A DNA stretch of 64,000 nt from Escherichia coli (lineage in GTDB: Bacteria; Pseudomonadota; Gammaproteobacteria; Enterobacterales; Enterobacteriaceae). The position numbers were made by a program, and so were the translations under genes. Of the stretch, positions 9,957-27,199 are shown piece after piece. Below the pieces are notes generated by a model that was not told the origin of the DNA, searched no databases, and worked only from the letters and a program-made list of their open reading frames with translations. The stretch is taken from assembly GCF_044324785.1 (NCBI RefSeq), contig NZ_CP172127.1; one strand, written 5' to 3'. Positions within the stretch are counted from its first letter, which is position 1, and each line of letters starts with the position of its first letter.

Positions 9957-9967
9957 ACACCACCAAT

Positions 9968-9997
9968 GGCTGGCCTGGAGAAATCGCCAGGCCAGCC
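9968..9997. terminator. Perfect hairpin between dcp and the CinA-like remnant (possible bidirectional terminator)
   Basis: ggctggcctgg-agaaatcg-ccaggccagcc inverted repeat; no strong T-run on either side, so strength is uncertain. Confidence 0.4.
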
Positions 9998-10000
9998 TGG

Positions 10001-10099: not shown

Positions 10100-10320
10100 T
10101 CCGTTATAATAATTTTCAAATTTATAAATCTGATTGTTCTGAAATATGTTTAAGACTCTTTAATCTTCTTCTTACTTTAGTGAGTAAAATTCTCTGAATA
10201 TTTGACAGTTAGTTGCCTGATTTTAAATGCCTTATAACAATTGGCAGTATTCTTATTTGTCAATTATAAAAATAGCAACCAGACTTAATAAGTCAAACCA
10301 AACGCAATTAAGGAGTCAGT

Positions 10321-10713
10321 ATGAAATTTCAGGCCATTGTATTAGCAAGTTTTCTTGTCATGCCTTATGCGTTGGCAGATGACCAGGGCGGATTAAAACA
10401 GGATGCAGCGCCACCGCCGCCTCATGCAATAGAAGATGGCTATCGTGGAACCGATGATGCAAAAAAAATGACCGTTGATTTCGCAAAAACCATGCACGAT
10501 GGCGCTTCGGTTTCACTACGCGGTAATTTGATTTCTCACAAAGGAGAAGACCGTTACGTTTTTCGCGATAAGAGCGGAGAAATTAATGTTGTTATTCCTG
10601 CGGCGGTCTTTGATGGACGAGAAGTTCAGCCGGACCAGATGATCAACATTAGCGGTAGTCTGGATAAGAAAAGCGCGCCGGCCGTCGTTCGGGTCACTCA
10701 TTTGCAGAAATAA
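10321..10713 (+). CDS. ydeI: Periplasmic OB-fold (BOF/YgiW family) stress protein
   Basis: 130-aa ORF with a signal peptide [19 protein letters not shown] and a BOF-family C-terminal region. Confidence 0.8.
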
Positions 10714-10967
10714 AAATAAATTAGCCTGATGGCCTGAACTACTGGGCCATTAGGGTATTGGGTTATGCTATTTGTCATCCTTTTATTTACGATAATGCAG
10801 AGGTAATTTACAGAATTAAACACTTTATTATCCGCTGATTTTGTTTTAAATCACAATGTTATCTCAGAGATGACTCATAACTTCGGATTTCTATGAAAAT
10901 ATTGACGTAATTTTGCTTTTCTCTCGTTAGAATAGCGCGCACAAGGAACTGTGAAAAAGGAGTTGCA

Positions 10968-11858
10968 ATGATCAAGAAGACAACGGAAATTGATGCCATC
11001 TTGTTAAATCTCAATAAGGCTATCGATGCCCACTACCAGTGGCTGGTAAGTATGTTTCACAGCGTAGTCGCGAGAGATGCCAGTAAGCCAGAAATAACGG
11101 ATAACCATTCTTATGGACTGTGCCAGTTTGGTCGGTGGATTGATCATCTGGGGCCACTCGATAACGATGAATTACCTTACGTTCGGCTAATGGATTCTGC
11201 CCATCAACATATGCATAACTGTGGTCGGGAATTAATGTTGGCTATTATTGAAAATCACTGGCAGGACGCGCATTTCGACGCCTTTCAGGAAGGGTTGCTT
11301 TCTTTTACTGCGGCATTAACCGATTACAAAATTTATTTGCTGACGATCCGTAGCAATATGGATGTTTTGACGGGATTGCCGGGTCGTCGGGTTCTTGATG
11401 AATCCTTTGATCATCAGTTACGCAACGCTGAGCCTCTGAATCTTTATTTAATGTTGTTGGATATTGACCGATTTAAATTGGTTAATGATACCTACGGGCA
11501 TTTAATCGGCGATGTAGTATTACGCACCCTGGCAACTTACTTAGCCAGTTGGACGCGCGATTACGAAACGGTTTATCGCTACGGTGGCGAAGAATTTATC
11601 ATTATTGTCAAAGCGGCTAATGATGAAGAAGCATGTCGTGCAGGTATCAGAATTTGCCAGTTAGTCGATAACCATGCCATCACACATTCTGAAGGGCATA
11701 TCAACATTACCGTGACTGCAGGTGTGAGTCGCGCATTTCCTGAAGAGCCTCTGGATGTGGTCATTGGAAGAGCGGACCGGGCAATGTATGAGGGTAAGCA
11801 AACCGGAAGAAATCGCTGTATGTTTATTGACGAACAAAATGTGATTAACCGAGTTTAA
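10968..11858 (+). CDS. dgcZ: Zinc-regulated diguanylate cyclase (CZB + GGDEF)
   Basis: 296-aa ORF MIKKTTEIDAILLNLNKAIDAHYQWL...; CZB zinc-binding domain and a GGEEF active-site motif (YRYGGEEFIIIV). Confidence 0.9.
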   Translation: MIKKTTEIDAILLNLNKAIDAHYQWLVSMFHSVVARDASKPEITDNHSYGLCQFGRWIDHLGPLDNDELPYVRLMDSAHQHMHNCGRELMLAIIENHWQDAHFDAFQEGLLSFTAALTDYKIYLLTIRSNMDVLTGLPGRRVLDESFDHQLRNAEPLNLYLMLLDIDRFKLVNDTYGHLIGDVVLRTLATYLASWTRDYETVYRYGGEEFIIIVKAANDEEACRAGIRICQLVDNHAITHSEGHINITVTAGVSRAFPEEPLDVVIGRADRAMYEGKQTGRNRCMFIDEQNVINRV

Positions 11859-11902
11859 GCTCCGTTTAACATTCATTGAGAAAACTGATGCTACTGTGTC
11901 AA

Positions 11903-12001
11903 CGATCCGTTATCAGTGCAGGAAAATGCCTGTTAGCGTAAAAGCAAAACACAAATCTATCCATGCAAGCATTCACCGCCGGTTTACTGGCGGTTTTTTT
12001 T
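11903..12001 (+). ncRNA. mgrR: Candidate small RNA in the dgcZ-mgtS intergenic region (position expected for MgrR); boundaries approximate
   Basis: Non-coding stretch ending in a strong intrinsic terminator (caccgccgg-ttta-ctggcggt followed by T8 at 11993-12001). Location divergent from mgtS matches the known mgrR locus. The 5' end is not determined. Confidence 0.45.
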
Positions 12002-12007
12002 CGCCGT

Positions 12008-12049
12008 CATAAAAATCAGGCCCCTTGTACACAACTGTAACAAGGGGCC
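12008..12049 (-). terminator. Terminator hairpin for mgtS
   Basis: ggccccttgtacacaactgtaacaaggggcc hairpin with a flanking A-run on the + strand (T-run for the minus transcript). Confidence 0.5.
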
Positions 12050-12076
12050 GGTTAGGTGAGGGATTATCTCCGTTCA

Positions 12077-12172
12077 TTAGTCATCCCATTTGTGGCTGAA
12101 ATACGCGGCCAGAAAACCAGAAAATAAAATTATTCCCAGTACGGCCATAAAAACATTCATATTACCCAGCAT
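12077..12172 (-). CDS. mgtS: Small inner-membrane protein MgtS (YneM), 31 aa
   Basis: Hand translation of the minus strand gives MLGNMNVFMAVLGIILFSGFLAAYFSHKWDD*. It is below the ORF-track size cutoff; single TM helix. Confidence 0.8.
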   Translation of the reverse strand: MLGNMNVFMAVLGIILFSGFLAAYFSHKWDD

Positions 12173-12298
12173 TATTTGCCTCCGTTTATGGTGTGGTGTG
12201 TTTCCTCGCTTACCTTAATTTTCATCTCAATGAGAAAGATATTAGCAGAGGTAACCTAAACGAAGGCTGAATTAAATTTTTATTGTGTTCGACTTAAA

Positions 12299-13486
12299 TC
12301 AACAAAGCGCGGGCTGCCCCCACGGTCTTGCACGAATTCCTTTTAACATCAGCACCCACGCAGCAATGATCACCAACGCTAAGATGATAAACAGCGAGGA
12401 AGGCGGCAGGTTGGTTAGCACTATGCCACTCACTAATGGGTTAATCGCCGCACCAAGCCAGCCTAAAGACTGAGCGGAAAAATAGCTGGCTTTCATTCCT
12501 GGCGGCGCAATATGGTCAATCAACATATACTCGCCCGGCGCATAAATGATTTCACCGACAGTAAATACCGCAGCTGACATACCCCACAATAGCAGGCTGT
12601 TGCCGGAAAAAATAAAACCGACCAGACCGATGACGAAACAGAGGGTGCCTGCTGTCATCAGCGTGCGGATGTTAGCCGGGTTAAGTCGCCGGCCCACGGA
12701 ATATTGCAACGTAACCACCATGGCAGCATTCACCGGAAGAACAACCGCGACCACCTTTTCGGCAAAATCCCCATCAGCAATCACCATCACATATTGTGAA
12801 ATGCATGAAGCAAATGCGCCGCTAACAAAAGAAGCCAGAAAGCCAGAGCAGGTAAACCACAACAGTGCTTTATCTTGTAATAAAACTTTCGGCGACCAGG
12901 CACTGGCTGTTTCCGTGGCGATGATTTTCTCGCTGCGCTTTACCCAAATTTGAATGAAAAGCATGGGAAACGCGGAACAGATAGCTGCCAGCCAAAAGGG
13001 CAGATTGATGCTCTGCATCACCAACAGCGTGCCGAGCGGCGGACCGATGGTCCAGCCAATGTTTAGCATGGTGTAGTTGATTGAGAAGATTTTCGTTTTG
13101 CTGGTGGAGGAAAGATTGTCGGCAAACCAGGCTTTCAACACGGTAGCAAAAACGGAATAGGCGCAGTTAATAAGGGCAAAAAAGAGTACCACCAGCGTCA
13201 CGTTATTCACTAAAGGAATGGCAATAAAACCGCTGGCGAAGGCGGTAATTGCCAGTAACATATAGCGTTTCTTGTCGAACTTATCCGCCAGGATACCAAA
13301 ACCGAGGCTAAAAACGACGCCAATAGTGAGCGCAATTGTCATCGCATAACCGATTAGATCGACACTCAGGCTGTACTGGCGACTCAAGTAAATGGTCATA
13401 AACGGCAGCGTAGCGCCGCGTCCGATGGTTAATAACAACGACGAGGCAAGAAGGGCGCTGGTAGAGCGTCGTAGGGATAAGTTCAT
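12299..13486 (-). CDS. ydeE: MFS efflux transporter
   Basis: 395-aa ORF, 12 predicted TM segments, MFS-type. Confidence 0.8.
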   Translation of the reverse strand: MNLSLRRSTSALLASSLLLTIGRGATLPFMTIYLSRQYSLSVDLIGYAMTIALTIGVVFSLGFGILADKFDKKRYMLLAITAFASGFIAIPLVNNVTLVVLFFALINCAYSVFATVLKAWFADNLSSTSKTKIFSINYTMLNIGWTIGPPLGTLLVMQSINLPFWLAAICSAFPMLFIQIWVKRSEKIIATETASAWSPKVLLQDKALLWFTCSGFLASFVSGAFASCISQYVMVIADGDFAEKVVAVVLPVNAAMVVTLQYSVGRRLNPANIRTLMTAGTLCFVIGLVGFIFSGNSLLLWGMSAAVFTVGEIIYAPGEYMLIDHIAPPGMKASYFSAQSLGWLGAAINPLVSGIVLTNLPPSSLFIILALVIIAAWVLMLKGIRARPWGQPALC

Positions 13487-13680
13487 TTGTCTGTCCGGCA
13501 GTGCGTTTCGTTATGTTTTGTTTTAGAGATGTAAAGAAATAGCATGGCAAAAATCCGAAGTATAGCGACTTATTTGCGCTTTAATGCCGTCGTAATCGGC
13601 GACTAACGAATCAACTGTTAAAGAAAAGTAAATTCAGCTAAGTTGATTGCTTACAAAAGATGAAATTCAGAGGCGGTAGA

Positions 13681-14580
13681 ATGTCGCGAAAAGATGGGGT
13701 GTTGGCGCTACTGGTAGTGGTCGTATGGGGGCTGAATTTTGTGGTCATCAAAGTGGGACTTCATAACATGCCACCGCTGATGCTGGCCGGTTTGCGCTTT
13801 ATGCTGGTCGCTTTTCCGGCCATCTTTTTTGTCGCACGACCGAAAGTACCACTGAATTTGCTGCTGGGGTATGGATTAACCATCAGTTTTGCGCAGTTTG
13901 CCTTTCTGTTTTGCGCCATTAACTTTGGTATGCCTGCTGGACTGGCCTCGCTGGTGTTACAGGCACAGGCGTTTTTTACTATCGTACTTGGCGCATTTAC
14001 TTTCGGTGAGCGGCTGCATGGCAAACAATTGGCGGGGATTGCCTTAGCGATTTTTGGCGTACTGGTGTTAATCGAAGATAGTCTGAATGGTCAGCATGTG
14101 GCGATGCTCGGCTTTATGTTGACCCTGGCGGCAGCATTTAATTGGGCGTGTGGCAACATCTTCAATAAAAAGATCATGTCGCACTCAACGCGTCCGGCGG
14201 TGATGTCGCTGGTAATCTGGAGCGCATTAATCCCAATCATTCCCTTCTTTGTTGCCTCGCTGATTCTCGATGGTTCCGCAACCATGATTCACAGTCTGGT
14301 CACTATCGATATGACCACCATCTTGTCTCTGATGTATCTGGCGTTTGTGGCGACAATTGTTGGTTATGGGATCTGGGGGACGTTACTGGGACGCTATGAA
14401 ACCTGGCGGGTTGCACCGTTATCGTTACTGGTGCCCGTAGTAGGACTGGCAAGTGCGGCACTATTGCTGGATGAACGCTTAACGGGTCTGCAATTTTTCG
14501 GTGCGGTGCTCATTATGACCGGGCTGTATATCAATGTATTTGGCTTGCGGTGGCGTAAAGCGGTAAAGGTGGGAAGTTAA
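13681..14580 (+). CDS. eamA: Cysteine/O-acetylserine exporter (DMT superfamily)
   Basis: 299 aa from MSRKDGVLALLVVVVWGLNFVVIKVGL; two EamA-domain repeats. Confidence 0.85.
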   Translation: MSRKDGVLALLVVVVWGLNFVVIKVGLHNMPPLMLAGLRFMLVAFPAIFFVARPKVPLNLLLGYGLTISFAQFAFLFCAINFGMPAGLASLVLQAQAFFTIVLGAFTFGERLHGKQLAGIALAIFGVLVLIEDSLNGQHVAMLGFMLTLAAAFNWACGNIFNKKIMSHSTRPAVMSLVIWSALIPIIPFFVASLILDGSATMIHSLVTIDMTTILSLMYLAFVATIVGYGIWGTLLGRYETWRVAPLSLLVPVVGLASAALLLDERLTGLQFFGAVLIMTGLYINVFGLRWRKAVKVGS

Positions 14581-14610
14581 TAAGCCCCGAGATGTCGGGG
14601 CCAGAACAAA

Positions 14611-14829
14611 CTACATAGCGTGTTGATTATAATAGGGCACGCCGAGCGCATCCGACTTATCACTGCCAGTACCCATGTGATTTAAATCAAACGGTGGTTG
14701 TTCCTGCGATGGGGGAACAACCACGACATTGGCACAGGAAGTAACAACCGGCTGCGTGGTTTGTTCCGCAATGCCCTGCGTGGAAAAGAGAATAAGCGCA
14801 GCTGCTATTGCGGATAAAAGTGGTTTCAT
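14611..14829 (-). CDS. marB: Periplasmic protein MarB
   Basis: 72-aa ORF MKPLLSAIAAALILFSTQGIAEQTT..., immediately downstream of marA. Confidence 0.85.
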   Translation of the reverse strand: MKPLLSAIAAALILFSTQGIAEQTTQPVVTSCANVVVVPPSQEQPPFDLNHMGTGSDKSDALGVPYYNQHAM

Positions 14830-14860
14830 GATTGCCTCAGTGACGTTGTCACGTTATCAA

Positions 14861-15244
14861 CTAGCTGTTGTAATGATTTAATGGATGTAAAAAGCGCGAT
14901 TCGCCCTGCATATTGGTCATCCGGTATTTATGCGGCGGAACATCAAAGTAATTTTTGAAGGTTCGGGTCAGAGTTTGTTGCGACTCGAAGCCATATCGTT
15001 CTGCCAGATAGAGTATCGGCTCGTTACTTTCCTTCAGCTTTTGCGCGATTTCCGTCATCTTACGGCTGCGGATGTATTGGCCTAATGAATGACCGGTTTC
15101 TTTTTTAAACATCCGTTGCAGGTGCCATTTGGAGTAACCCGAACGCTCTGACACTTTCTCCAGTGACAGTGGCGATTCCAGGTTGTCCTCGATCCAGTCC
15201 AAAATGCTATGAATGGTAATAGCGTCAGTATTGCGTCTGGACAT
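14861..15244 (-). CDS. marA: AraC/XylS-family activator MarA
   Basis: [51 protein letters not shown]...; 127 aa with the double HTH. Confidence 0.9.
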
Positions 15245-15264
15245 CGTCATACCTCTTTTTTTGT

Positions 15265-15699
15265 TTACGGCAGGACTTTCTTAAGCAAATGCTCAAGTGT
15301 TGCCACTTCGTCCGCCGTCAGGTTTTTTGTTAATTCTTGGTGCAGGTCCTGGCCAACTAATTGATGGCATTGTTCACATATTGCCGCGCCGCTGGTGGTA
15401 AGTTTTACCAGTACGCCGCGCTTATCATTCGGGTTCGGCAACCTTTCCACCCAGCCTTTACAGACCAGGCGATCCAGCATACGGGTCAGTGCTCCCAGGT
15501 CGACCGACAATACCTTTTTCAGTTCAACCGGAGTAATACACGCCGCGCAGCGGATAGAGCAGAGCACCTTAAACTGTGCCGCGGTAATATCCAGCGGAGA
15601 CAGATACTCGTTAAGCAGGCGATCTTTCTTCTGATTAACCATATGGATTAAGCGACCCAATGGAATAATTTCATTGAACAGATCGCTGGTACTTTTCAC
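15265..15699 (-). CDS. marR: MarR repressor of the multiple-antibiotic-resistance operon
   Basis: 144-aa winged-helix MarR-family ORF heading the marRAB operon. Confidence 0.9.
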
Positions 15700-15910
15700 A
15701 TTAGTTGCCCTGGCAAGTAATTAGTTGCAGAGGATAATATTGCCCAGGCAAGTATAAGTCAAATGAATGAATTGACCGATGCCACGTTTTGCTAAATCGG
15801 TTCAAGTTTTGGTCAATGCGATGCAAGGTTAGCTAAAGAGTGACACTTTATCCTTGTTTACCCCTTATACTTTTCGCTGATAACCCAGATACACAGGATA
15901 ACAACCACCA
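15700..15910. promoter_or_regulatory. marO: divergent marRAB / marC promoter-operator region
   Basis: 211-bp intergenic region between divergent marR and marC; the known location of MarR operators and the marbox. Individual sites were not mapped here. Confidence 0.6.
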
Positions 15911-16576
15911 ATGTTAGATTTGTTTAAAGCAATTGGCCTGGGGCTGGTGGTGTTACTACCGTTAGCTAACCCATTAACAACTGTCGCGTTATTTCTTGGC
16001 CTGGCAGGCAACATGAACAGTGCCGAACGTAATCGTCAGTCGTTGATGGCCTCGGTGTACGTCTTTGCCATCATGATGGTGGCGTATTACGCCGGGCAAC
16101 TGGTGATGGATACATTTGGCATTTCGATTCCCGGTCTGCGAATTGCAGGCGGCTTAATCGTCGCGTTTATCGGTTTTCGGATGCTCTTTCCGCAACAGAA
16201 AGCAATTGATTCACCGGAAGCGAAAAGCAAGTCGGAAGAGCTGGAAGATGAACCCAGTGCCAATATTGCTTTTGTACCACTGGCAATGCCTAGTACCGCC
16301 GGACCGGGAACCATTGCGATGATTATTAGCTCGGCGTCCACTGTGCGTCAGAGTTCAACCTTCGCTGATTGGGTACTGATGGCTGCGCCGCCGCTGATCT
16401 TTTTCCTGGTGGCGGTTATTTTGTGGGGAAGTCTACGCAGCTCTGGCGCAATTATGCGGCTGGTGGGCAAGGGGGGAATTGAAGCGATCTCCCGCCTGAT
16501 GGGATTCCTGCTGGTATGTATGGGCGTGCAGTTTATTATTAACGGCATCCTGGAAATCATTAAAACGTACCATTAA
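15911..16576 (+). CDS. marC: Inner-membrane protein MarC (UPF0056 family)
   Basis: 221-aa multi-TM ORF divergent from marR. Confidence 0.85.
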
Positions 16577-16598
16577 AAAAGGCCCGAATGGGCCTTTC
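16575..16598. terminator. Bidirectional terminator between marC and ydeA
   Basis: aaaaaaggcccgaatgggcctttc: short GC stem flanked by an A-run and a T-run. Confidence 0.6.
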
Positions 16599-16600
16599 AA

Positions 16601-17791
16601 CTATTGCGTCTGTTCTTCGAGTGTCACTGGCCAGCGGCGAAAAATGATGATTGACCATATTAACGCGGCAAAAGCAGGCACCGCGCCCACATAACCAATC
16701 ATCGACATTGACCAGTGCAGACTGACCTGATTACCTACCAACGCGCCAGCGCCGATTCCAATATTAAATATCCCCGAGAATAGCGCCATCGCGACATCGG
16801 TGGCATCTGGTGCCAGCGCCAGCACTTTAACCTGCATACCAAGCCCGATGATCATCATCGCGATCCCCCAGAAAATACTTAGCACCCCGAGGTGTATTTC
16901 ACTGTTCGCCGCAGGTAGCAGCAGTGCGAGGCACACCAGCAACAGCGCAATCGCCGTACTCACCAACGCAGACGCATACTGATTACCCAGTTTCCCGAAA
17001 ATCACGCTGCCAATAATGCCCGCACCACCGAGTAATAACAGTAATGCCGTGGCAAAGTTGGCGCTGAATCCCGCAATGTTTTGCACAAAAGGCTCGATAT
17101 AGCTGTATGCCGTGTAATGGGCGGTGACAACCACCACAGTTAACAAATAAATGCTCATTAATGCCGGGCGGCGGAACAATAGCGGGAGGCTTTTCAATGA
17201 ACCGGAATGCTCACTGGGCAGCAAGGGAAGTAACTTAATCAGGCACAAAAGGGTAATAAACGCCCCGATACCAATCGCGAAGAAGGTCATTCGCCAGCCA
17301 AAATACTGCCCCACAATGCGCCCGAGAGGTAAACCTAATACCATTGCCAGTGCTGTACCGGTGGCAATTAAACTCAACGCCTGCGCTCGCTTCCCGGCCG
17401 GAGCCATACGGATCGCCAGAGACGCCGTAATCGACCAGAAAATCGCATGTGCAAAAGCCACACCAATGCGACTGATCACCAGAACGGTAAAGCTCCACGA
17501 CAAAAACGACAGTACGTGGCTGGCAATAAACACCACAAACAGGCAGATCAGTAATTTGCGTCGTTCAACCTGGCTGGTCATTAACATAAAAGGCAATGAC
17601 ATTAGCGCCACTACCCATGCATAAATCGTCAACATGATGCCGACCTGAGCGGTTTGCATGTGAAAACTTTGCGCAATGTCAGAGAGCAGGCCAACAGGGA
17701 CAAATTCGGTGGTGTTGAAGATGAAGGCGGCGACTGCCAGCGTAACGACCCGTAGCCACGCCACTTTGCGGGAAACAGTGTTTGTTGTCAT
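16601..17791 (-). CDS. ydeA: MFS sugar efflux transporter (SotB/YdeA)
   Basis: 396-aa MFS ORF. Confidence 0.8.
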
Positions 17792-17940
17792 AACAGATTA
17801 TCGGGTGAGTTGCGAAAAAGTGATGAAATGATCTTAAAACGGTTAATGATGTGAATACAATGCATTTGTGATCTGGATCGCGTTTTCCGTTTCTCTGACG
17901 CTGATTCTGTTCCGCGTCAGAGAGTCGGTAACATCACGGT

Positions 17941-19056
17941 TTAATGACGTTCAGGGAGGTCTGGCGTTTTGGCGGTTGCGGGTATAGGTGATCTGACAGG
18001 GGAGCGAGGCCTGTTTTTCACCAGGTCTTCGTGAGTAACTTTTGGCGGCGTTTCATTTTTTACAAAAAGTTTGAGGGTCCTGCGCGCCATATGTTTGATA
18101 ATTTTATCATCACTTAATGATGCTGGCATCAACACGTCATTCAAATCACTTTCATTGGGATTCATAAATTGGTGATAGTGCAACAACATATTGGCGAAAA
18201 ATAAAAACAAGTCCTGAAAATGTGGAAAATCTTGTTCTGCTAAAAGGGATAAAAAGCAGATACAGACTTCGGGTAGTACATGTTTGTTAGAACCTAATGA
18301 ATCCATCAGACTTTGCAATAAATCCTCTTTTAATTCGCTGTCCTTTATGTCAAGAATGGCGGTGATCAAGTTAGGCTCTTTATTGACGAACCATCTGTGA
18401 ACTTCAGAGTTATTCCATAATCGGGGGAGTATGACAAAATTACCGCGAGAGATAAAATTCAGGACAAGCAAATCAAACTGGCGTAAGTAATCTGCAGCGG
18501 TATGGTGATCCGGAGGCAGGGGTTCAATATGTGGTGTATGCGCTCTTTTGATGGGAACGCCAGGGTTGATCATTGGAAATTGTTCAATAAAATCATTCAG
18601 AAACAGAAAGAGCACACGCTCGACGCCGGTCTGAAATACGCGCCCCATAGTGACAGGCTTTGGGTTGGGAGCGCAAAAAATATTAATTTCTCCATCATGG
18701 CGAAAATTATCTAAATAAATAGGGCTTAAATTTATTACTACCTGAAATTCAATATTTTCTTTGTGTCTTCCATTCTTGACGGGATAAGTGAGTTTAAACT
18801 GAACCTTTTCATTGTATAGCGTGTCGTTACCCCGGAAAGAAGTCCTCTGAATATATGATAAGTTATCAAGGTTATTAAATATCTTTTTTGTGGCTGAGTT
18901 GATGTTTAAAGACGTGCGCCACTCTTCATCACATATTATGGTACTGAGTGCATCAATAAAATCCTTTAAAACTTCTTTTACCTGAGGTGCAATATTACGT
19001 ACGGGAAAATCATCAGGAAGAGATATGTAATTGCTGATGCTTACTGGCGTAACCAT
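17941..19056 (-). CDS. yneK: Uncharacterised protein YneK
   Basis: 371-aa ORF with no recognisable catalytic motif; visibly AT-rich compared with its neighbours. Confidence 0.7.
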   Translation of the reverse strand: MVTPVSISNYISLPDDFPVRNIAPQVKEVLKDFIDALSTIICDEEWRTSLNINSATKKIFNNLDNLSYIQRTSFRGNDTLYNEKVQFKLTYPVKNGRHKENIEFQVVINLSPIYLDNFRHDGEINIFCAPNPKPVTMGRVFQTGVERVLFLFLNDFIEQFPMINPGVPIKRAHTPHIEPLPPDHHTAADYLRQFDLLVLNFISRGNFVILPRLWNNSEVHRWFVNKEPNLITAILDIKDSELKEDLLQSLMDSLGSNKHVLPEVCICFLSLLAEQDFPHFQDLFLFFANMLLHYHQFMNPNESDLNDVLMPASLSDDKIIKHMARRTLKLFVKNETPPKVTHEDLVKNRPRSPVRSPIPATAKTPDLPERH

Positions 19057-19139
19057 ATTTGCCCCATATAGTCATAAGTCATCGGAGCATCACTATATAG
19101 AGCATATTAGCCGCAAGAACTATCAAAAATAGCTCATTG

Positions 19140-20015
19140 CTAACTCTGTTTTGCCGAGTCAGACACATCCAGTAGTTGAATAAATGCCTCAAGCGGACGC
19201 GTTTTCGCACCGCGACGCCAGACCAGCCAGGTTGTTAACCAACGCCATTGCTCAGCTAACGGCCACGCTTCAACCTGGTGATGCCCCGGCATACTTTCCA
19301 GCATAGAGCGTGGAATAAGCGCAATGCCTGCTCCTGCGACCACACAGGCCAACATCCCGTGATACGACTCCATCTCGTGAATAGTTCCCGGAGCGGCACC
19401 GTCAGCATGAAACCAGCTCTCGAAGTGGCGACGATACGAACAATTGGCGCGGAAGGCATAAATGTTACTGCCATTAACCTGACTGGCACGGGTTACTGGC
19501 GCATGTCCTTGTGGCGTGACAATCATCAGCTCCTCGCGGTACACCGGTATCCCGTCAATGGCAGTATGGTTAATGGGCCCATCAATAAACGCCGCATTCA
19601 GTTTTCCCTCCAGCACCCCTTCCAGCATAGTGCCGGAAGGGCCGGTGGAAAGTGAAAACTGAATTTTGGGATAACGACGGTTAAATTCCGCCAGCGTGGC
19701 CGGAATGCGCACTGCAGCGGTGCTTTCCAGCGAACCAAGAGAAAATAAACCTTGCGGCTCATCGCCAGCGACAACGCTCCGCGCTTCATCCACTAACGCG
19801 AGAATTTGTTGGCTATAGCGTAAAAAGTTATGCCCGGCAGGCGAGAGACGTAAACGCTGATTCTCGCGAATAAACAGATCAACCCCCAGTTCTGTTTCCA
19901 GCTGGCGTAGACGGGTAGTGAGATTCGACGGCACGCGATGCACTTTTGCTGCAGCCTGGGTTATGCTGCCAGCTTCGGCAACCGCGTTGAACATCTCCAG
20001 TTGGGTCAGATCCAT
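19140..20015 (-). CDS. yneJ: LysR-family transcriptional regulator
   Basis: 291-aa ORF with an N-terminal LysR HTH ([40 protein letters not shown]); divergent from sad. Confidence 0.8.
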
Positions 20016-20115
20016 AATATTCTCGATTCGTGAATAAGTGGCTTAATATTATTCATTTTAAAGCAAGAGTAAATCTGCGTATCTTCATACAATGACTCAT
20101 AAAGGAGATACCCCG

Positions 20116-21504
20116 ATGACCATTACTCCGGAAACTCATGCAATTTCGATAAATCCTGCCACCGGTGAACAACTTTCTGTGCTGCCGTGGGCTGGCGCTG
20201 ACGATATCGAAAACGCACTACAGCTGGCGGCAGCTGGCTTTCGCGACTGGCGCGAGACAAATATAGATTATCGTGCTGAAAAACTGCGTGATATCGGTAA
20301 GGCTCTGCGTGTCCGTAGCGAAGAAATGGCGCAAATGATCACCCGTGAAATGGGCAAACCAATCAACCAGGCGCGCGCTGAAGTGGCGAAATCGGCGAAT
20401 TTGTGTGACTGGTATGCAGAACATGGTCCGGCAATGCTGAAGGCGGAACCTACGCTGGTGGAAAATCAGCAGGCAGTTATTGAGTATCGACCGTTGGGGA
20501 CAATTCTGGCGATTATGCCGTGGAATTTTCCGTTATGGCAGGTGATGCGTGGCGCGGTTCCCATCATTCTTGCTGGTAACGGCTACTTACTTAAACATGC
20601 GCCGAATGTGATGGGCTGTGCACAGCTCATTGCCCAGGTGTTTAAAGATGCGGGTATCCCACAAGGCGTATATGGCTGGCTGAATGCCGACAACGACGGC
20701 GTCAGTCAGATGATTAAAGACTCGCGCATTGCTGCTGTCACGGTGACCGGAAGTGTTCGTGCGGGAGCGGCTATTGGCGCACAGGCTGGAGCGGCACTGA
20801 AAAAATGCGTACTGGAACTGGGCGGTTCGGATCCATTTATTGTGCTTAACGATGCCGATCTGGAACTGGCGGTTAAAGCGGCGGTAGCCGGACGTTTTCA
20901 GAATACCGGACAGGTTTGTGCAGCGGCAAAACGCTTTATCATCGAAGAGGGAATTGCTTCGGCATTTACCGAACGTTTTGTGGCAGCTGCGGCAGCCTTG
21001 AAAATGGGCGATCCCCGTGACGAAGAGAACACTCTCGGACCAATGGCTCGTTTTGATTTACGTGATGAGCTGCATCATCAGGTGGAGAAAACTCTGGCGC
21101 AGGGTGCGCGTTTGTTACTGGGCGGGGAAAAGATGGCAGGGGCAGGTAACTACTATTCGCCGACGGTTCTGGCGAATGTTACCCCAGAAATGACTGCGTT
21201 TCGGGAAGAAATGTTTGGCCCCGTTGCGGCAATCACCATTGCGAAAGATGCAGAACATGCACTGGAACTGGCTAATAATAGCGAGTTCGGCCTTTCAGCG
21301 ACCATTTTCACCACCGACGAAACACGGGCCAGACAGATGGCGGCACGTCTGGAATGCGGTGGGGTGTTTATCAATGGTTATTGTGCCAGCGACGCGCGAG
21401 TGGCCTTTGGTGGCGTGAAAAAGAGTGGCTTTGGTCGTGAGCTTTCCCATTTCGGCTTACACGAATTCTGTAATATCCAGACGGTGTGGAAAGACCGGAT
21501 CTGA
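20116..21504 (+). CDS. sad: NAD+-dependent succinate-semialdehyde dehydrogenase
   Basis: Aldehyde dehydrogenase family with catalytic Cys and Glu motifs; start taken at [11 protein letters not shown] (462 aa). Confidence 0.85.
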
Positions 21505-21567
21505 CGCGACATATTCAGCTCTGATATACTCGCAGGTCTTTTCAGACCTGCGGTCCAGGAGTAGAAA

Positions 21568-22494
21568 GTGGCAGTCGCCATGGATAATGCAATTTTAGAA
21601 AACATCTTGCGGCAAGTGCGGCCGCTCATTGGTCAGGGTAAAGTCGCGGATTATATTCCGGCGCTGGCTACGGTAGACGGTTCCCGGCTGGGCATTGCTA
21701 TCTGTACCGTTGACGGACAGCTTTTTCAGGCCGGAGACGCACAAGAACGTTTTTCCATTCAGTCTATTTCCAAAGTGCTGAGTCTCGTTGTCGCCATGCG
21801 TCATTACTCCGAAGAGGAAATCTGGCAACGCGTCGGCAAAGATCCGTCTGGATCACCGTTCAATTCTTTAGTGCAACTGGAAATGGAGCAGGGTATTCCG
21901 CGTAATCCGTTTATTAATGCCGGTGCGCTGGTGGTCTGCGATATGTTGCAAGGGCGATTAAGCGCTCCTCGGCAACGTATGCTGGAAGTCGTGCGCGGCT
22001 TAAGCGGTGTGTCTGATATTTCATACGATACGGTGGTAGCGCGTTCCGAATTTGAACATTCCGCGCGAAATGCGGCTATCGCCTGGCTGATGAAGTCGTT
22101 TGGCAATTTCCATCATGATGTGACAACCGTTCTGCAAAACTACTTTCATTACTGCGCTCTGAAAATGAGCTGTATAGAGCTGGCCCGGACGTTTGTCTTT
22201 CTGGCTAATCAGGGGAAAGCTATTCATATTGATGAACCTGTGGTGACGCCAATGCAGGCGCGGCAAATTAACGCGCTGATGGCGACCAGTGGTATGTACC
22301 AGAACGCGGGGGAGTTTGCCTGGCGGGTGGGACTACCAGCGAAATCTGGCGTTGGTGGCGGTATTGTGGCGATTGTTCCGCATGAAATGGCCATCGCAGT
22401 CTGGAGTCCGGAACTGGATGATGCAGGTAACTCGCTCGCGGGTATCGCCGTCCTTGAACAATTGACGAAACAGTTAGGGCGTTCGGTTTATTAA
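21568..22494 (+). CDS. glsB: Glutaminase 2
   Basis: 308-aa glutaminase-family ORF (serine-dependent beta-lactamase-like fold). Confidence 0.85.
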
Positions 22495-22853
22495 TGCAGT
22501 CTCTCGATCCACTCTTCGCGCGTTTATCCCGTTCAAAATTTCGCTCTCGCTTTCGTTTGGGCATGAAAGAGCGTCAGTATTGTCTGGAGAAAGGCGCGCC
22601 AGTCATCGAACAACATGCGGCGGATTTTGTCGCTAAACGTCTTGCTCCGGCATTACCGGCTAATGACGGTAAGCAAACCCCCATGCGCGGGCATCCGGTG
22701 TTTATCGCTCAGCACGCCACCGCGACCTGCTGTCGCGGTTGTCTGGCTAAGTGGCATAACATTCCGCAGGGTGTTTCGTTAAGCGAGCAACAACAACGTT
22801 ATATCGTGGCGGTAATCTATCACTGGCTGGTTATACAGATGAATCAGCCATGA
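22494..22853 (+). CDS. yneG: Conserved protein YneG (DUF4186)
   Basis: 119-aa ORF whose ATG overlaps the glsB stop (TAATG), suggesting translational coupling. Confidence 0.7.
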   Translation: MQSLDPLFARLSRSKFRSRFRLGMKERQYCLEKGAPVIEQHAADFVAKRLAPALPANDGKQTPMRGHPVFIAQHATATCCRGCLAKWHNIPQGVSLSEQQQRYIVAVIYHWLVIQMNQP

Positions 22854-22991
22854 GAATTGCGGAAAACGATAAAATAGCATTCCCAGGGTATCTTTATTTG
22901 CCGCCGCTGTCAGCGAACATGCTATCCTTTATGAGAATTTACTTATTACGTTGAGATAATTGCCACCCGCAATTGTATGGACAGATAATTA

Positions 22992-24410
22992 ATGCATGTA
23001 CACCCCATTTCAACTTTCCGTGTGTTCCAGGAAGGTCATCTGCTACGTAATAGCATCGCTATTTTTGCGCTAACCACGCTGTTCTATTTTATTGGTGCAG
23101 AGTTACGGCTGGTTCACGAACTTTCTCTTTTCTGGCCGCTGAATGGCGTAATGGCGGGGGTGTTTGCGCGCTATGTCTGGCTTAATCGACTGCATTACTA
23201 TGCGATCAGTTATGTGGCGATGCTGGTTTATGATGCCATAACCACCGAATGGGGACTGGTTTCACTGGCTATCAATTTCTCCAATATGATGTTTATTGTT
23301 ACCGTCGCCTTACTGGTCGTGCGGGATAAGCGTCTGGGGAAAAATAAGTATGAGCCAGTAAGTGCCTTACGGCTATTTAATTACTGTCTGATTGCCGCAT
23401 TATTATGCGCTATTGTCGGGGCGATTGGTTCGGTCAGTATTGATAGTCTGGATTTCTGGCCTTTGCTTGCCGACTGGTTCAGTGAGCAATTCTCAACGGG
23501 CGTGTTGATCGTGCCTTGTATGCTGACATTGGCAATTCCTGGAGTGCTGCCGCGCTTTAAAGCAGAACAGATGATGCCCGCTATCGCGCTTATTGTGTCG
23601 GTTATTGCCTCGGTAGTCATTGGCGGAGCGGGGAGTCTGGCGTTCCCGCTGCCTGCATTAATCTGGTGTGCAGTGCGCTATACGCCGCAGGTAACATGTC
23701 TGTTGACCTTTGTTACCGGTGCGGTGGAAATCGTACTGGTGGCAAATTCGGTGATTGATATCTCGGTCGGTTCGCCGTTCTCCATTCCGGAAATGTTCTC
23801 CGCACGTCTCGGTATTGCTACGATGGCGATATGCCCAATTATGGTTTCTTTTAGCGTGGCAGCGATCAATTCGCTAATGAAGCAAGTTGCGCTGCGAGCC
23901 GACTTTGATTTTCTGACTCAGGTTTACTCACGGTCCGGTCTTTATGAGGCGCTGAAAAGTCCATCGCTGAAACAGACACAACATCTGACTGTCATGCTGC
24001 TTGATATCGACTATTTCAAAAGCATTAACGATAACTATGGACATGAATGTGGCGATAAAGTGTTAAGCGTGTTTGCCCAGCATATTCAGAAGATTGTCGG
24101 TGATAAGGGGCTGGTGGCGCGAATGGGCGGCGAAGAATTTGCTGTTGCAGTGCCATCAGTGAATCCTGTCGATGGTCTGCTAATGGCGGAAAAAATCCGT
24201 AAAGGCGTTGAACTGCAACCGTTCACCTGGCAACAAAAAACGCTTTATCTCACGGTAAGTATTGGCGTCGGTAGTGGTTGCGCATCGTACCGAACGCTGA
24301 CCGATGACTTTAATAAATTGATGGTCGAAGCTGATACGTGTCTGTATCGCTCGAAGAAAGATGGGCGCAACCGTACCAGCACTATGCGTTACGGTGAGGA
24401 AGTTGTCTGA
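22992..24410 (+). CDS. dgcF: Membrane-anchored diguanylate cyclase (GGDEF)
   Basis: 472-aa ORF with an N-terminal multi-TM sensor region and a C-terminal GGDEF domain (RMGGEEFAVAV). The true start may be an internal codon. Confidence 0.75.
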   Translation: MHVHPISTFRVFQEGHLLRNSIAIFALTTLFYFIGAELRLVHELSLFWPLNGVMAGVFARYVWLNRLHYYAISYVAMLVYDAITTEWGLVSLAINFSNMMFIVTVALLVVRDKRLGKNKYEPVSALRLFNYCLIAALLCAIVGAIGSVSIDSLDFWPLLADWFSEQFSTGVLIVPCMLTLAIPGVLPRFKAEQMMPAIALIVSVIASVVIGGAGSLAFPLPALIWCAVRYTPQVTCLLTFVTGAVEIVLVANSVIDISVGSPFSIPEMFSARLGIATMAICPIMVSFSVAAINSLMKQVALRADFDFLTQVYSRSGLYEALKSPSLKQTQHLTVMLLDIDYFKSINDNYGHECGDKVLSVFAQHIQKIVGDKGLVARMGGEEFAVAVPSVNPVDGLLMAEKIRKGVELQPFTWQQKTLYLTVSIGVGSGCASYRTLTDDFNKLMVEADTCLYRSKKDGRNRTSTMRYGEEVV

Positions 24411-24636
24411 CATCTTTATTCATTCTGCGCGATTTAAATGCAATGTGTTCTACCACTTTATGATCGAAGAAAAGGCGTATTTCCTCGATTAAACCATGAT
24501 CCGCGCCACACTTTTCTCATAAAACTGCTCATTAATCATCAGGAGTTGATCAAAACAGGGGTTCGGCGTATTAAAGTTTGCTAACCTGTCGTACCAATTC
24601 AAACAGGTTGTATGACTAATCAGAAGGGAACCCATT

Positions 24637-26088
24637 GTGAAAACACTAAAACGTCGCGATTTTCCCGGTGCACAGTATCCAGAACGTATCATTCAGTTTG
24701 GTGAAGGTAACTTCCTGCGCGCCTTTGTTGACTGGCAAATTGATCTCCTGAATGAGCACACCGATCTGAATTCTGGCGTGGTCGTTGTTCGTCCGATTGA
24801 AACTTCATTCCCGCCGTCACTGAGCACGCAGGATGGTCTGTACACCACCATTATCCGTGGTCTGAACGAGAAGGGGGAAGCGGTCAGCGACGCGCGTCTG
24901 ATTCGCTCGGTTAATCGTGAAATCAGCGTCTACAGTGAATACGATGAATTCCTGAAACTGGCGCACAACCCGGAAATGCGCTTTGTTTTCTCTAACACCA
25001 CCGAAGCGGGTATCAGCTACCATGCGGGCGATAAATTCGATGACGCGCCAGCGGTAAGTTATCCGGCAAAACTGACACGTCTGCTTTTCGAGCGTTTTAG
25101 CCATTTCAACGGTGCGCTGGATAAAGGTTGGATCATCATCCCGTGTGAGTTGATCGACTACAATGGCGACGCGTTGCGTGAACTGGTGCTGCGCTATGCG
25201 CAAGAGTGGGCACTGCCAGAAGCATTTATTCAATGGCTGGATCAGGCTAACAGCTTCTGTTCTACGCTGGTGGACCGTATCGTTACCGGTTATCCGCGCG
25301 ATGAAGTGGCTAAACTGGAAGAAGAACTGGGTTATCACGATGGTTTCCTCGACACCGCTGAACACTTTTACCTGTTTGTGATTCAGGGGCCGAAATCCTT
25401 AGCGACTGAACTGCGTCTGGACAAATATCCGCTCAACGTGCTGATTGTTGACGATATTAAACCGTATAAAGAACGCAAAGTGGCAATACTCAACGGTGCG
25501 CACACCGCGCTGGTGCCGGTAGCGTTCCAGGCAGGGCTGGATACCGTAGGTGAAGCGATGAACGATGCTGAAATTTGCGCATTCGTTGAAAAAGCCATCT
25601 ACGAAGAAATTATTCCGGTACTGGATTTGCCACGCGATGAGCTGGAGTCTTTCGCCAGTGCAGTCACCGGACGTTTCCGTAACCCGTACATCAAGCATCA
25701 GCTGCTGTCTATCGCGCTCAACGGTATGACCAAGTTCCGCACCCGTATCCTGCCGCAGCTGCTGGCAGGGCAGAAGGCAAACGGCACACTTCCGGCGCGC
25801 CTTACTTTCGCATTAGCGGCATTGATTGCGTTTTATCGCGGTGAGCGTAACGGAGAAACATATCCGGTACAGGACGATGCACACTGGCTGGAACGTTATC
25901 AGCAACTCTGGAGCCAGCATCGTGACCGTGTTATCGGCACCCAGGAACTGGTAGCGATTGTTTTGGCAGAAAAAGACCACTGGGAGCAGGACCTGACGCA
26001 AGTGCCTGGACTGGTCGAGCAGGTTGCTAAGGACCTGGATGCGATTCTCGAAAAAGGAATGCGCGAAGCTGTACGCCCGTTGTGCTAA
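24637..26088 (+). CDS. uxaB: Altronate oxidoreductase (tagaturonate reductase)
   Basis: 483-aa mannitol-dehydrogenase-family ORF with a GTG start ([30 protein letters not shown]). Confidence 0.85.
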
Positions 26089-26284
26089 TACTCTGAACCC
26101 GGTTTCGACCGGGTTTCTCATTTCACTATATTAGTTACAACATCCTATATGCCTTTATCATTAACAGGTGCCACATGCAGCATCTGTTAATGTTGTAAGC
26201 TTGTAGGTAATTTGTACGTAGCGTCTTGAGAATGTGATCGTAATCACGTTTAATAGGGCGACTTTTCCACGCCTGAAGATAACC

Positions 26285-27199
26285 ATGATTGTTCGTCCAC
26301 AACAACACTGGCTGCGCCGTATTTTTGTCTGGCATGGCTCAGTATTATCCAAGATATCCTCGCGCTTACTACTCAATTTTCTCTTTTCTATCGCTGTTAT
26401 TTTCATGCTGCCCTGGTACACGCATCTGGGCATCAAATTCACCCTCGCACCGTTCAGCATTCTCGGTGTCGCCATCGCCATTTTTCTTGGTTTTCGTAAT
26501 AATGCCGGGTACGCCCGTTACGTTGAAGCGCGAAAACTTTGGGGGCAGTTGATGATTGCCTCACGGTCGTTACTGCGGGAGGTAAAAACGACATTGCCGG
26601 ATTCGGCAAGTGTAAAGGAGTTTGCCCGGCTGCAAATCGCCTTCGCTCACTGTTTACGCATGACATTACGCAAACAGCCACAGGCGGAAGTGCTGGCACA
26701 TTATCTCAAGACTGAAGATCTTCAGCGTGTACTGGCTTCGAACTCTCCAGCTAACCGTATCTTGTTAATAATGGGAGAATGGTTGGCGGTTCAGCGCCGC
26801 AATGGACAGCTTTCAGATATCCTGTTTATTAGCTTCAACGATCGGCTTAACGATATTTCAGCGGTTCTGGCAGGCTGCGAGCGCATTGCCTATACGCCAA
26901 TTCCCTTTGCCTACACCCTGATTTTGCATCGTACCGTTTATCTGTTTTGTATCATGCTGCCGTTCGCGCTGGTCGTGGATCTGCATTACATGACGCCTTT
27001 TATCTCTGTGCTGATTTCCTACACTTTTATTTCGCTGGATTGTCTGGCGGAAGAACTGGAAGATCCCTTCGGTACTGAAAACAATGATTTACCGCTGGAT
27101 GCTATCTGCAACGCTATTGAAATTGACCTGTTACAGATGAACGATGAAGCAGAAATTCCGGCAAAAATTCTTCCCGATCGTCATTACCAGCTGACGTAA
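26285..27199 (+). CDS. yneE: Bestrophin-family (UPF0187) membrane protein
   Basis: 304 aa from the internal Met MIVRPQQHW...; bestrophin-like TM topology. Confidence 0.75.
   Translation: MIVRPQQHWLRRIFVWHGSVLSKISSRLLLNFLFSIAVIFMLPWYTHLGIKFTLAPFSILGVAIAIFLGFRNNAGYARYVEARKLWGQLMIASRSLLREVKTTLPDSASVKEFARLQIAFAHCLRMTLRKQPQAEVLAHYLKTEDLQRVLASNSPANRILLIMGEWLAVQRRNGQLSDILFISFNDRLNDISAVLAGCERIAYTPIPFAYTLILHRTVYLFCIMLPFALVVDLHYMTPFISVLISYTFISLDCLAEELEDPFGTENNDLPLDAICNAIEIDLLQMNDEAEIPAKILPDRHYQLT

Follow-up and report, generated by a model that had tools for sequence, protein, structure and literature searches.

The yneK gene of Escherichia coli: an uncharacterised orphan on an AT-rich, probably ancient insert between ptrR and ydeA

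An AT-rich open reading frame of 371 codons, in a stretch of 64,000 nucleotides of E. coli DNA (the window), is the already known but uncharacterised E. coli gene yneK, an ordinary orphan gene. The best overall explanation, which we regard as probable, is that yneK lies on an ancient foreign insert, is held under weak selection and is decaying. Some 1.26 kb of AT-rich foreign DNA, with yneK as its sole gene, would have been inserted at the 3' end of ptrR in a common ancestor of E. coli and E. albertii, duplicating a short target sequence, rewriting the last few ptrR codons and bringing along a conserved hairpin at its own 3' edge. YneK would since have been retained by weak purifying selection yet have been dispensable. 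Several Escherichia species would have lost the gene altogether, and in roughly half of E. coli genomes it is either broken or deleted. The features concerned are listed below.

17941..19056, minus strand: yneK coding sequence, 371 aa, intact in the window (open reading frame list, NCBIfam equivalog, dN/dS 0.16)
17890..19147, no strand: AT-rich insert, 1,258 bp, GC 0.399, with flanks at 0.505 and 0.543 (empty sites, junction alignments)
19148..19156, minus strand: 5' copy of the direct repeat, CGGCAAAAC, within the last ptrR codons (E. albertii repeat, single copy in empty sites)
17882..17889, minus strand: 3' copy of the direct repeat, CGGAAAAC, where homology to the empty sites restarts (junction alignments)
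19140..20015, minus strand: ptrR (yneJ), a LysR regulator whose 3' end is the putative insertion target and whose C-terminus appears remodelled (C-terminus comparison)
17792..17881, minus strand: conserved ydeA upstream region, directly downstream of the insert (aligns from Escherichia to Salmonella, Citrobacter and Trabulsiella)
17892..17923, minus strand: conserved hairpin with arms 17914-17923 and 17892-17901, at the 3' boundary of the insert (folding, conservation)
19057..19139, minus strand: ptrR-yneK spacer and yneK 5' region (GGGG Shine-Dalgarno sequence 7-10 nt before the ATG)
18675..18680, minus strand: T6 homopolymer, gene nucleotides 377-382, codons 126-128 (T6 to T5 in other E. coli genomes)

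Identity, composition and expression signals

The window protein matches the NCBIfam equivalog 'YneK' (NF033404) with residues 1-371 on profile positions 1-371 (813.1 bits, E 2.5e-245), well above the curated cut-off of 40 bits at full length. The open reading frame starts at an ATG and has the same extent as E. coli yneK (UniProt P76150, K-12 b1527), with which it shares its strand and its neighbours, ptrR (yneJ) upstream and ydeA (sotB) downstream; RefSeq labels the corresponding DNA yneK and likewise places it between ydeA and ptrR. The window copy diverges from its relatives, with only 97% identity between its protein and the main E. coli cluster and a best DNA identity of 98.4% among complete E. 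coli genomes. The gene has been described as uncharacterised and confined to E. coli/Shigella (PMC12757027), and the literature on yneK or b1527 yielded nothing functional. Evolved or engineered strains are reported to lose it without harm, its association with bovine adherence has an adjusted P of 1, and as a CAST host factor it failed validation. Several papers on 'yneK' were set aside because their subject is an unrelated B. subtilis gene of the same name.

The first-pass annotation had described the gene as markedly more AT-rich than its flanking genes, and so it is: GC is 39.6% in yneK vs 51.6% in ydeA and 54.1% in ptrR (GC3 0.395, 0.597 and 0.531, respectively). All 11 neighbour genes lie at GC 0.46-0.54, and GC falls sharply at both ends of yneK. 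The contrast is local and not unique within the window, where 6.8% of 1116-bp windows along the 64 kb are equally or more AT-rich (z = -1.7). A comparison of codon use with other genes points the same way: the Fop of yneK (0.408) is the lowest among the 39 window open reading frames of at least 200 aa (mean 0.512, sd 0.049).

The first-pass annotation had also called such a composition typical of H-NS-silenced genes, and there are sequence proxies for H-NS binding. The insert is 60% AT across 1.26 kb. Seven sites within two mismatches of the H-NS motif TCGATAAATT fall in yneK (1.1 kb), against a window average of 1.9 per kb; there are no such near-matches in 16117-18094, which covers most of ydeA, and none in ptrR. 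Its AT-richness makes yneK a somewhat likely H-NS target, whose expression in the laboratory is therefore probably low. AT-rich, old and evolving faster at non-synonymous sites than its neighbours, it resembles the ancient H-NS-bound AT-rich genes such as ybdO, and its faster non-synonymous evolution matches the general finding for H-NS-bound genes (Higashi et al., 2016; PMC4720273). Unlike the H-NS-bound core genes of that study, yneK is not core and has been lost in many strains.

The spacer probably holds yneK's own promoter. In K-12, SELEX peaks of RNAP holoenzyme have been mapped to this yneJ-yneK spacer and to a point a little way into yneK itself (PMC5493296; PMC8743547). A terminator scan called none between ptrR and yneK, the six promoter-like sites inside yneK are not significantly more than the 3.3 +/- 1.6 expected, and no known RNA families were found within 17600-19300. 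A candidate hairpin in the 5'-UTR that would cover the ribosome-binding site of yneK (19057-19107) was dropped, its pairing not being conserved in the aligned E. albertii sequence.

The inserted segment and its age

[quoted passage not shown] The junction is a variable one, in which different cargo is present in other genera. Within the 1,258-bp segment yneK is the only real open reading frame. In E. albertii, CGACAAAACG flanks both sides of the insert (10/10 nt), and the empty sites hold a single copy of the flanking repeat, GCGGCAAAATGAGA. The repeat in E. coli is 8-9 nt long, degenerate and interrupted by one indel. In E. albertii only 0-3 of 1000 shuffles reach the junction alignment score. 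The score is significant there and in the window, whereas two further E. coli genomes show no significance. PtrR ends in DVSDSAKQS in E. coli vs DTSLEQYVAAK in Escherichia species lacking yneK. The first-pass annotation had read the composition of yneK as that of a horizontally acquired gene. Genome comparison and composition support a foreign origin of the segment, since it is missing from the same junction in relatives, is flanked by the repeat and encodes an orphan protein with no relatives outside Escherichia.

The flanking repeat, present once in empty sites, resembles the target-site duplications of insertion sequences and transposon cargo. Unlike these, the insert is single-copy per genome and has neither a transposase nor terminal inverted repeats; for want of the latter two, a transposon origin was dropped. 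Its single real open reading frame, with no Pfam match, leaves it without a mobility gene (integrase or transposase), and no tRNA lies in 10000-28000. An integrative element was considered, with ~45-75 nt from the end of ptrR repeated at the 3' end of yneK, but such a duplication is not claimed: the signal is marginal in E. coli (p 0.007-0.07), the same test gives p 0.41 in E. albertii, and comparison with empty-site sequences gives no support.

The hairpin at the insert's 3' boundary had been noticed at 17890-17925 and called weak. It is present (17892-17923) and strong, with a perfect 10-bp stem, a folding energy of -26.5 kcal/mol in an 86-nt context and a z of -4.0; none of 200 shuffles folds equally well. 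Six sequences from E. coli and E. albertii share the 9-bp core of the hairpin unchanged while the loop varies, and it is retained even where yneK is deleted. As a GC-rich stem-loop it has one hallmark of a Rho-independent terminator; the stem is followed by AACGGAAAACGCGAUCC, with no U-tract, and no terminator-like site was called. By its sequence, then, the hairpin is not a canonical terminator.

The acquisition does not appear to be recent, which is where the early reading of horizontal transfer needs qualification. The syntenic orthologue in E. albertii has 68% amino acid identity and a dS of 1.21, which matches or slightly exceeds the highest values among eight flanking genes in the same species comparison (0.53-1.14); for this reason insertion before the E. 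coli/E. albertii split is very probable. In that comparison dN is 0.196 for yneK vs 0.008-0.051 in its neighbours. The dN/dS of yneK, 0.16 against E. albertii and likewise against a deep E. coli allele, indicates that the gene is truly coding. The ratio is below 1 in every segment, at 0.06-0.28 in structured segments and 0.24-0.68 in the tail, with a low point of 0.08-0.10 at codons 136-225. In the local tree of flanking genes, E. albertii falls outside a group of E. coli and the yneK-less species. With yneK present in E. coli and E. albertii but missing from four phylogenetically intermediate species, one must assume either that it was cleanly lost at least twice or that it moved laterally long ago.

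The YneK protein and its decay in E. coli

The first-pass annotation had recognised no motif in YneK, and none emerged from profile searches: no Pfam family matched at E<=10, a PDB profile search gave a single match at E=3, the best PHROGs match had an E of 0.033, and PADLOC gave no match for E. coli YneK and a 14.5-bit noise match for E. albertii YneK (E 0.0046). A word-index search of 5.8 billion proteins returned Escherichia/Shigella YneK only. An exhaustive HMM search of 1.84 billion representatives gave 48 matches; 17 of these, among them every one of the weakest, were inspected and proved to be fragments or frameshifted copies of YneK, and the remaining 31 lie between 1e-62 and 1e-8. With tblastn there was no match in phages, and among 'plasmids' only mislabelled chromosomes or 34-aa remnants. 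By exhaustive search, YneK thus appears as a taxonomically restricted orphan with no homologue outside Escherichia.

YneK is a 43-kDa protein of pI 6.3 with no TM segment (maximum KD19 1.18) and no signal peptide. Its N-terminus is rich in V/P/I/S, and its tail is 22% Pro with SP/TP motifs. The central stretch is strongly conserved and His-rich: ERVLFLFLNDFIEQFPMI...PIKRAHTPHIEPL..HH.AADYLRQFD. Residues H173, H176, E178, H184 and H185 form an invariant cluster. Two independent AF2 runs gave the same secondary-structure order at low confidence, and the predicted layout consists of an N-terminal alpha/beta part, a His-rich centre, a C-terminal domain made up of helices only and a disordered tail rich in Pro/Arg. 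Fold searches with the N-terminal part gave weak, non-significant UEV/RWD-like hints (probability 0.57-0.60, E 0.25-0.35). Any specific biochemical role would be improbable as a proposal; most likely, YneK would not be a housekeeping protein but a non-enzymatic one for binding or as an adaptor, specific to a niche.

About half of E. coli genomes have yneK deleted, frameshifted or disrupted by an IS, as counted in an even sample of 60 complete genomes. The gene is deleted in 13 of the 60 (~22%), interrupted by IS1 in one, and has a frame-shifting length of 1114-1115 bp in 16 (~27%); all six of these 16 that were checked are flagged by RefSeq as frameshifted pseudogenes. The commonest inactivating frameshift is the T6 to T5 change (five of six frameshifted genomes sampled), which leads to a stop at codon 153. 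In a set of 5,417 genomes, 21% retain less than 80% of yneK. Other lesions include ISVsa5 together with a frameshift (L003), deletions (L001, L002), a stop at codon 86 in the E. albertii type strain and the truncated YneK common in Shigella sonnei. The deep second E. coli allele is 85.7% identical in nucleotides over yneK and 96.3% over the adjacent ydeA, and its divergent block stops abruptly at the 3' edge of the insert; the common deletion remnant could be assigned to neither E. coli allele. The pseudogene or deleted state of yneK in roughly half of E. coli genomes had escaped the first-pass annotation.

Alternative origins and roles

The deep allele bears on a different history, in which yneK entered either E. 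coli or E. albertii and later reached the other by homologous recombination through the ptrR and ydeA flanks, with no need for a single gain followed by repeated loss. A divergent block that ends at the insert edge does show recombination at work at this locus. The dS of yneK, however, equals or exceeds that of the flanking genes, which would make such a transfer about as old as the species split, and the frequency of deletion within E. coli makes repeated loss easy; we consider inter-lineage transfer unlikely. An origin of yneK de novo from non-coding DNA at this site, or its dismissal as a spurious, untranslated frame, would suit the absence of homologues outside the genus and the low AF2 confidence. 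Both are effectively refuted: outgroup sites of 108-321 bp offer no 1.1-kb template, a dN/dS of 0.16 at a dS of 1.2 and a codon-position pattern of GC1 0.48 > GC3 0.40 > GC2 0.31 are those of a coding gene, and the calculated chance of a 371-codon open frame in 40%-GC DNA is ~3e-11.

[quoted passage not shown] ETT2 has a GC of 36.9%, was gained before E. coli and E. albertii diverged and has decayed in most E. coli (PMC4700944; PMC11068852). The profile of yneK is similar in taxonomic range, GC (36-40%), pre-split acquisition and widespread erosion by mutation within E. coli. Of the 15 non-LEE effector loci of E. albertii, 7 are found neither in a prophage nor in an integrative element (PMC4700944). 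The lack of a Sec signal, the V/P/I/S-rich N-terminus, the Pro-rich tail with its SP/TP motifs and the UEV/RWD-like hints would also be compatible with secretion. Yet neither a chaperone nor a T3SS gene adjoins yneK, YneK is unlike any known effector family in Pfam, PDB and fold searches, the literature searched gave no secretion data for it, and K-12-type laboratory strains, which are not known to have a working T3SS, carry yneK intact. ETT2, moreover, is a 29.9-kb island at tRNA-glyU with T3SS genes, whereas the insert at ptrR measures 1.26 kb, has yneK as its single gene and encodes no recognisable domain; there is no physical link between the two. That YneK is a T3SS substrate is very unlikely, and we give as little credence to the wider proposal that it is a remnant of the ancient AT-rich influx that brought ETT2, a present or former secreted host-interaction protein with a fold unseen elsewhere; were an ETT2-era origin true, the decay of yneK in E. 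coli would mirror that of ETT2. Equally hard to credit is a single-gene anti-phage defence or toxin-type islet, although isolated AT-rich accessory genes are commonly of this kind. Isolated, low in GC and accessory, in a variable junction and with frequent presence/absence polymorphism, yneK has the setting of one, but it has no partner gene, PADLOC offers nothing beyond noise and PHROGs nothing below E 0.03, and defence genes are usually wide and patchy in distribution, whereas YneK is found in one genus at one locus.

On the preferred reading of an ancient, decaying foreign insert, yneK would be a real, selected protein gene of foreign origin that has sat for tens of millions of years at one exact site in one genus and is now being lost. 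Strain differences in yneK (the deletion, T6 to T5, the deep second allele) are better taken as lineage markers than as likely causes of phenotype, and decay explains the between-strain variation of yneK in pangenome association studies. Status as a new protein family or host-interaction factor would need an experimental role. yneK is one of the 'y-ome' (function-unknown) genes of the best-studied bacterium, and the possibilities for it are narrowed here. As a clean natural case, it may illustrate the whole life cycle of such orphans, from insertion through retention without amelioration of GC and fast evolution to multiple independent inactivations.

Identity and composition of yneK

The feature is the previously annotated gene yneK, whose ORF the first-pass annotation had placed exactly:

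17941..19056, minus strand: yneK ORF, ATG start, 371 aa

The NCBIfam equivalog model NF033404 covers its product end to end (813 bits). The DNA is matched in 5,418 of 5,426 complete E. coli genomes, and RefSeq names the matching DNA 'putative protein YneK', flanked by ydeA, for an L-arabinose MFS exporter, and ptrR (formerly yneJ), for a LysR-type regulator of putrescine utilisation. The gene order of this well-known stretch is eamA-marBAR-marC-ydeA-yneK-ptrR-sad-glsB-yneG-dgcF.

As first described, yneK is more AT-rich than its flanks: its GC content is 0.396 (GC1 0.48, GC2 0.31, GC3 0.395), against 0.516 for ydeA and 0.541 for ptrR. Eleven neighbours all lie at 0.46-0.54, and in a sliding profile the dip to 0.37-0.41 is confined to the yneK interior. 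Codon use is lower as well; the optimal-codon score, based on a standard E. coli list of optimal codons, is 0.408, the lowest among the 39 window ORFs of at least 200 aa (mean 0.512), and the share of rare codons is about twice the mean. Because GC, sliding profile and codon use all deviate, the contrast is real. It is not unique within the 64 kb, as 6.8% of equal-sized windows are as AT-rich or more so. Further AT-rich patches lie at window ~900-2300, ~9800-10250, ~36050-36900 and ~44250-45000, with GC of 0.35-0.42 in 1.1-kb windows, equal to or below that of yneK.

The product was said to lack a recognisable motif, and Pfam indeed gives zero matches even at E<=10. An indexed search of 5.8 billion proteins found 22 entries; each is YneK from Escherichia or Shigella, or a fusion or fragment of it, and the most distant is an E. 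albertii protein of 68% identity. Searching 1.84 billion cluster representatives exhaustively with a profile gave 48 matches; every one of the 17 inspected, all the weakest included, was a YneK piece, many with frameshift-type garbling. By tblastn, YneK had no match among 50,697 phage records, and among 72,556 plasmid records only 34-aa remnants or megabase chromosomes filed as plasmids. PLSDB entries NZ_CP134663.1, NZ_CP141089.1 and NZ_OL790696.1 (4.8-4.9 Mb) are such chromosomes, with chromosomal yneK. A PDB sequence-profile search, PHROGs, PADLOC and Rfam returned nothing significant for YneK or its locus. A BLAST survey across GTDB genomes came to the same conclusion, with no YneK relatives elsewhere (PMC12757027). 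Judged by these remote-homology searches, which found only Escherichia and Shigella YneK, the gene is a genus-restricted orphan.

The insert at the ptrR-ydeA junction

Loci of other genomes were retrieved with PtrR as query, one genome per species, and Sad, PtrR, YneK, YdeA and MarC were placed in them by tblastn. Among these species loci, yneK occurs only in E. coli (L008) and E. albertii (L013). The former is SMXE01000224.1, mislabelled 'MAG: Caldithrix sp. CR04bin15'; its sad-ptrR-yneK-ydeA-marC proteins are 97-100% identical to those of E. coli, and the Caldithrix MAG is therefore contaminated with E. coli. The ptrR-to-ydeA gap is 115-169 bp in four yneK-less Escherichia species representatives (Escherichia sp. 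MOD1-EC7003, Escherichia sp. E1V33, E. whittamii and 'E. coli' SCPM-O-B-8794) and 108-321 bp in Salmonella enterica subsp. arizonae and diarizonae, many Citrobacter and Trabulsiella. Among Enterobacter, Klebsiella, Kluyvera, Raoultella, Kosakonia and others (L014-L087), 1-5 kb of unrelated, GC-rich genes occupy this interval. Inspection by eye, with no family search, picked out one or two ORFs resembling PhzF isomerases, one resembling a GNAT acetyltransferase and one resembling a lactate/malate dehydrogenase. The junction is a recurrent gene-turnover hotspot.

Alignment of filled and empty sites, that is, junctions with and without yneK, delimits the insert. On the ydeA side homology resumes directly after a hairpin (window ...GTCAGAGAAACGGAAAACGCGATCCAGATCACAAA vs empty ...GAAACGGCAAAATGAGAC..GATCACAAA). 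On the ptrR side the insert begins at the ptrR stop-codon region, which is why PtrR ends in ...DVSDSAKQS* in E. coli and in ...DTSLEQYVAAK* in yneK-less species. The edges are marked by:

19148-19156: direct repeat at the ptrR end, CGGCAAAAC
17892-17923: hairpin with a 10-bp perfect stem, at the 3' edge of the yneK insert
17882-17889: direct repeat after the hairpin, CGGAAAAC

Both repeat copies read CGACAAAACG in E. albertii, and empty sites hold a single copy. Only 0-4 of 1000 shuffles align as well locally as the junctions of the window and E. albertii; in two other E. coli genomes the junction alignment is not significant against shuffles. The repeat is probably a target duplication, now eroded, on either side of a segment of 1,258 bp with GC 0.399. 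The insert showed neither a transposase nor an integrase gene, no adjacent tRNA and no terminal inverted repeats, and a longer ptrR 3'-end duplication, as an integrative element would leave, is only marginally supported. The composition and the empty sites in related taxa agree with the foreign origin proposed in the first-pass annotation.

The hairpin, initially described as weak, is present and is not weak: its folding energy is -26.5 kcal/mol, where shuffles average -14.6 +/- 3.0 (z -4.0). All six sequences compared, which include two E. coli alleles, one yneK-deleted genome and E. albertii, share the 9-bp core unchanged, and the loop and flanks vary. It is a constrained element at the insert edge. 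A canonical intrinsic terminator was considered and rejected, as no U-run follows on either strand and a terminator scan was empty.

The yneK-less MOD1-EC7003, a close E. coli relative, has ~66 nt of unique filler at the junction (L009:6859-6933), with its own palindrome CTGTGT...ACACAG and no match among the other sequences compared. The ~90 bp upstream of ydeA (window 17792-17881) form a conserved block across Escherichia, Salmonella, Citrobacter and Trabulsiella, with the motifs GATCACAAA..CATTGT..TTAACCGTTTTAAGATC..TTTTCGCAAC, and look like a candidate regulator-binding promoter region.

Age, selection and decay

E. albertii has yneK at the identical site, between ptrR and ydeA. Its synonymous divergence from the window is 1.21 for yneK and 0.53-1.14 for eight flanking genes, and a neighbour-joining tree of sad, ptrR, ydeA and marC places E. 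albertii outside E. coli and the four yneK-less species. The GC of yneK has not ameliorated: E. albertii has 0.36, and E. coli copies have 0.38-0.40. In the simplest history, yneK would have been gained once, before the E. coli/E. albertii split, and then lost at least twice. An equally old lateral transfer of yneK via the conserved flanks seems unlikely to us. The horizontal acquisition first proposed thus stands as to foreignness, and with a synonymous divergence of 1.21 it is ancient, not recent.

yneK has a dN/dS of 0.16 when E. coli is compared with E. albertii, and the same value between two E. coli alleles; its neighbours have 0.007-0.062, and its dN is 4-24 times theirs. The ratio is below 1 in every segment, lowest in codons 136-225 (0.08-0.10), which contain an invariant His-rich motif, and highest in the tail, 336-371 (0.24-0.68). 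These rates argue for a real, selected, fast-evolving gene. Faster non-synonymous evolution is a general pattern of anciently acquired H-NS-bound genes (PMC4720273). A deep minority allele is found in ~93 of 5,410 E. coli genomes (>=95% identity to the allele). Its protein is only 84% identical, and its divergence is maximal in the 3' half of yneK (77-85% nucleotide identity); identity climbs back abruptly to 96.5% where the insert ends on its 3' side. Window 13960-14760 (marB and the eamA 3' end) is another hypervariable patch when two E. coli genomes are compared, with 88-91.5% identity in 200-bp windows vs 96-100% around it. In a published adherence pangenome scan, marB and yneK were the top two hits, both non-significant.

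About 21% of complete E. coli genomes keep <80% of yneK, and three retrieved loci illustrate its loss:

L001: 1-kb deletion inside yneK, 102 bp left
L002: yneK deletion extending into the ydeA 5' end
L003: ISVsa5 insertion and frameshift in yneK

Among 60 genomes sampled at even steps down the match ranking, 13 have only an 85-bp remnant and one has IS1; 16 of the 46 full-coverage matches are 1114 or 1115 bp, not 1116. RefSeq calls yneK 'frameshifted' in all six short-length genomes fetched. A T6->T5 slip at codons 126-128 is common to five of them and brings a stop at codon 153; other lesions among the six are slips in T5 and A6 runs and, in one genome, a nonsense codon. Given the deletions, IS1 and length changes, full-length YneK can be made by roughly half of E. 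coli genomes at most. In the E. albertii type strain NBRC 107761 (L013:6961-8076) yneK is cut short by a stop in codon 86; YneK is intact on further E. albertii contigs (L004-L006), and in Shigella sonnei a truncated form predominates. Co-deletion of yneK, ydeA and marC has been harmless in laboratory evolution and engineering.

Expression and possible roles

A spacer of 83 bp separates ptrR from yneK, which follows it on the same strand, and no terminator was found in between. In vitro genomic SELEX for K-12 located RNA polymerase holoenzyme peaks both within the yneJ-yneK spacer and a short way into yneK (PMC5493296; PMC8743547). These peaks are compatible with yneK having its own promoter, and also with the promiscuous binding of polymerase that AT-rich DNA typically shows. 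Near-matches to the H-NS motif TCGATAAATT number seven in yneK, zero in ptrR and zero in 16117-18094 (most of ydeA), which makes H-NS silencing of yneK, as first suggested, plausible.

YneK (42.9 kDa, pI 6.3) lacks a signal peptide and any hydrophobic stretch of membrane-helix length (maximum 19-residue Kyte-Doolittle 1.18); its last 36 residues are basic and 22% proline. Two AlphaFold2 runs, one from E. coli and one from E. albertii sequence, are of low confidence (pLDDT 42.7 and 50.1) and agree in element order. Predicted are N-terminal helices (~24-61), a beta-meander (~66-127) and a long helix, an unmodelled, highly conserved stretch (~160-181), and a C-terminal helical bundle (~216-332, pLDDT 56-75) followed by a disordered tail. 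The gene caller begins E. albertii YneK nine codons upstream (L004:6001-6027, MTFALHGAK...); this extension is probably an annotation artefact, since in E. coli that ATG is not in frame with the gene.

No test here supports membership of yneK in effector, defence, transposon or terminator families. We would guess, weakly, at a non-enzymatic binding protein; for the alternative, a metal-binding or catalytic role, the invariant H173/H176/E178/H184/H185 cluster is the best lead. The resemblance of yneK to ETT2, the type III secretion island of E. coli and E. albertii, in age, composition, host range and decay suggests a possible, though very improbable, connection with type III secretion. The yneK insert is an old single-gene AT-rich islet, its gene an orphan now being lost.
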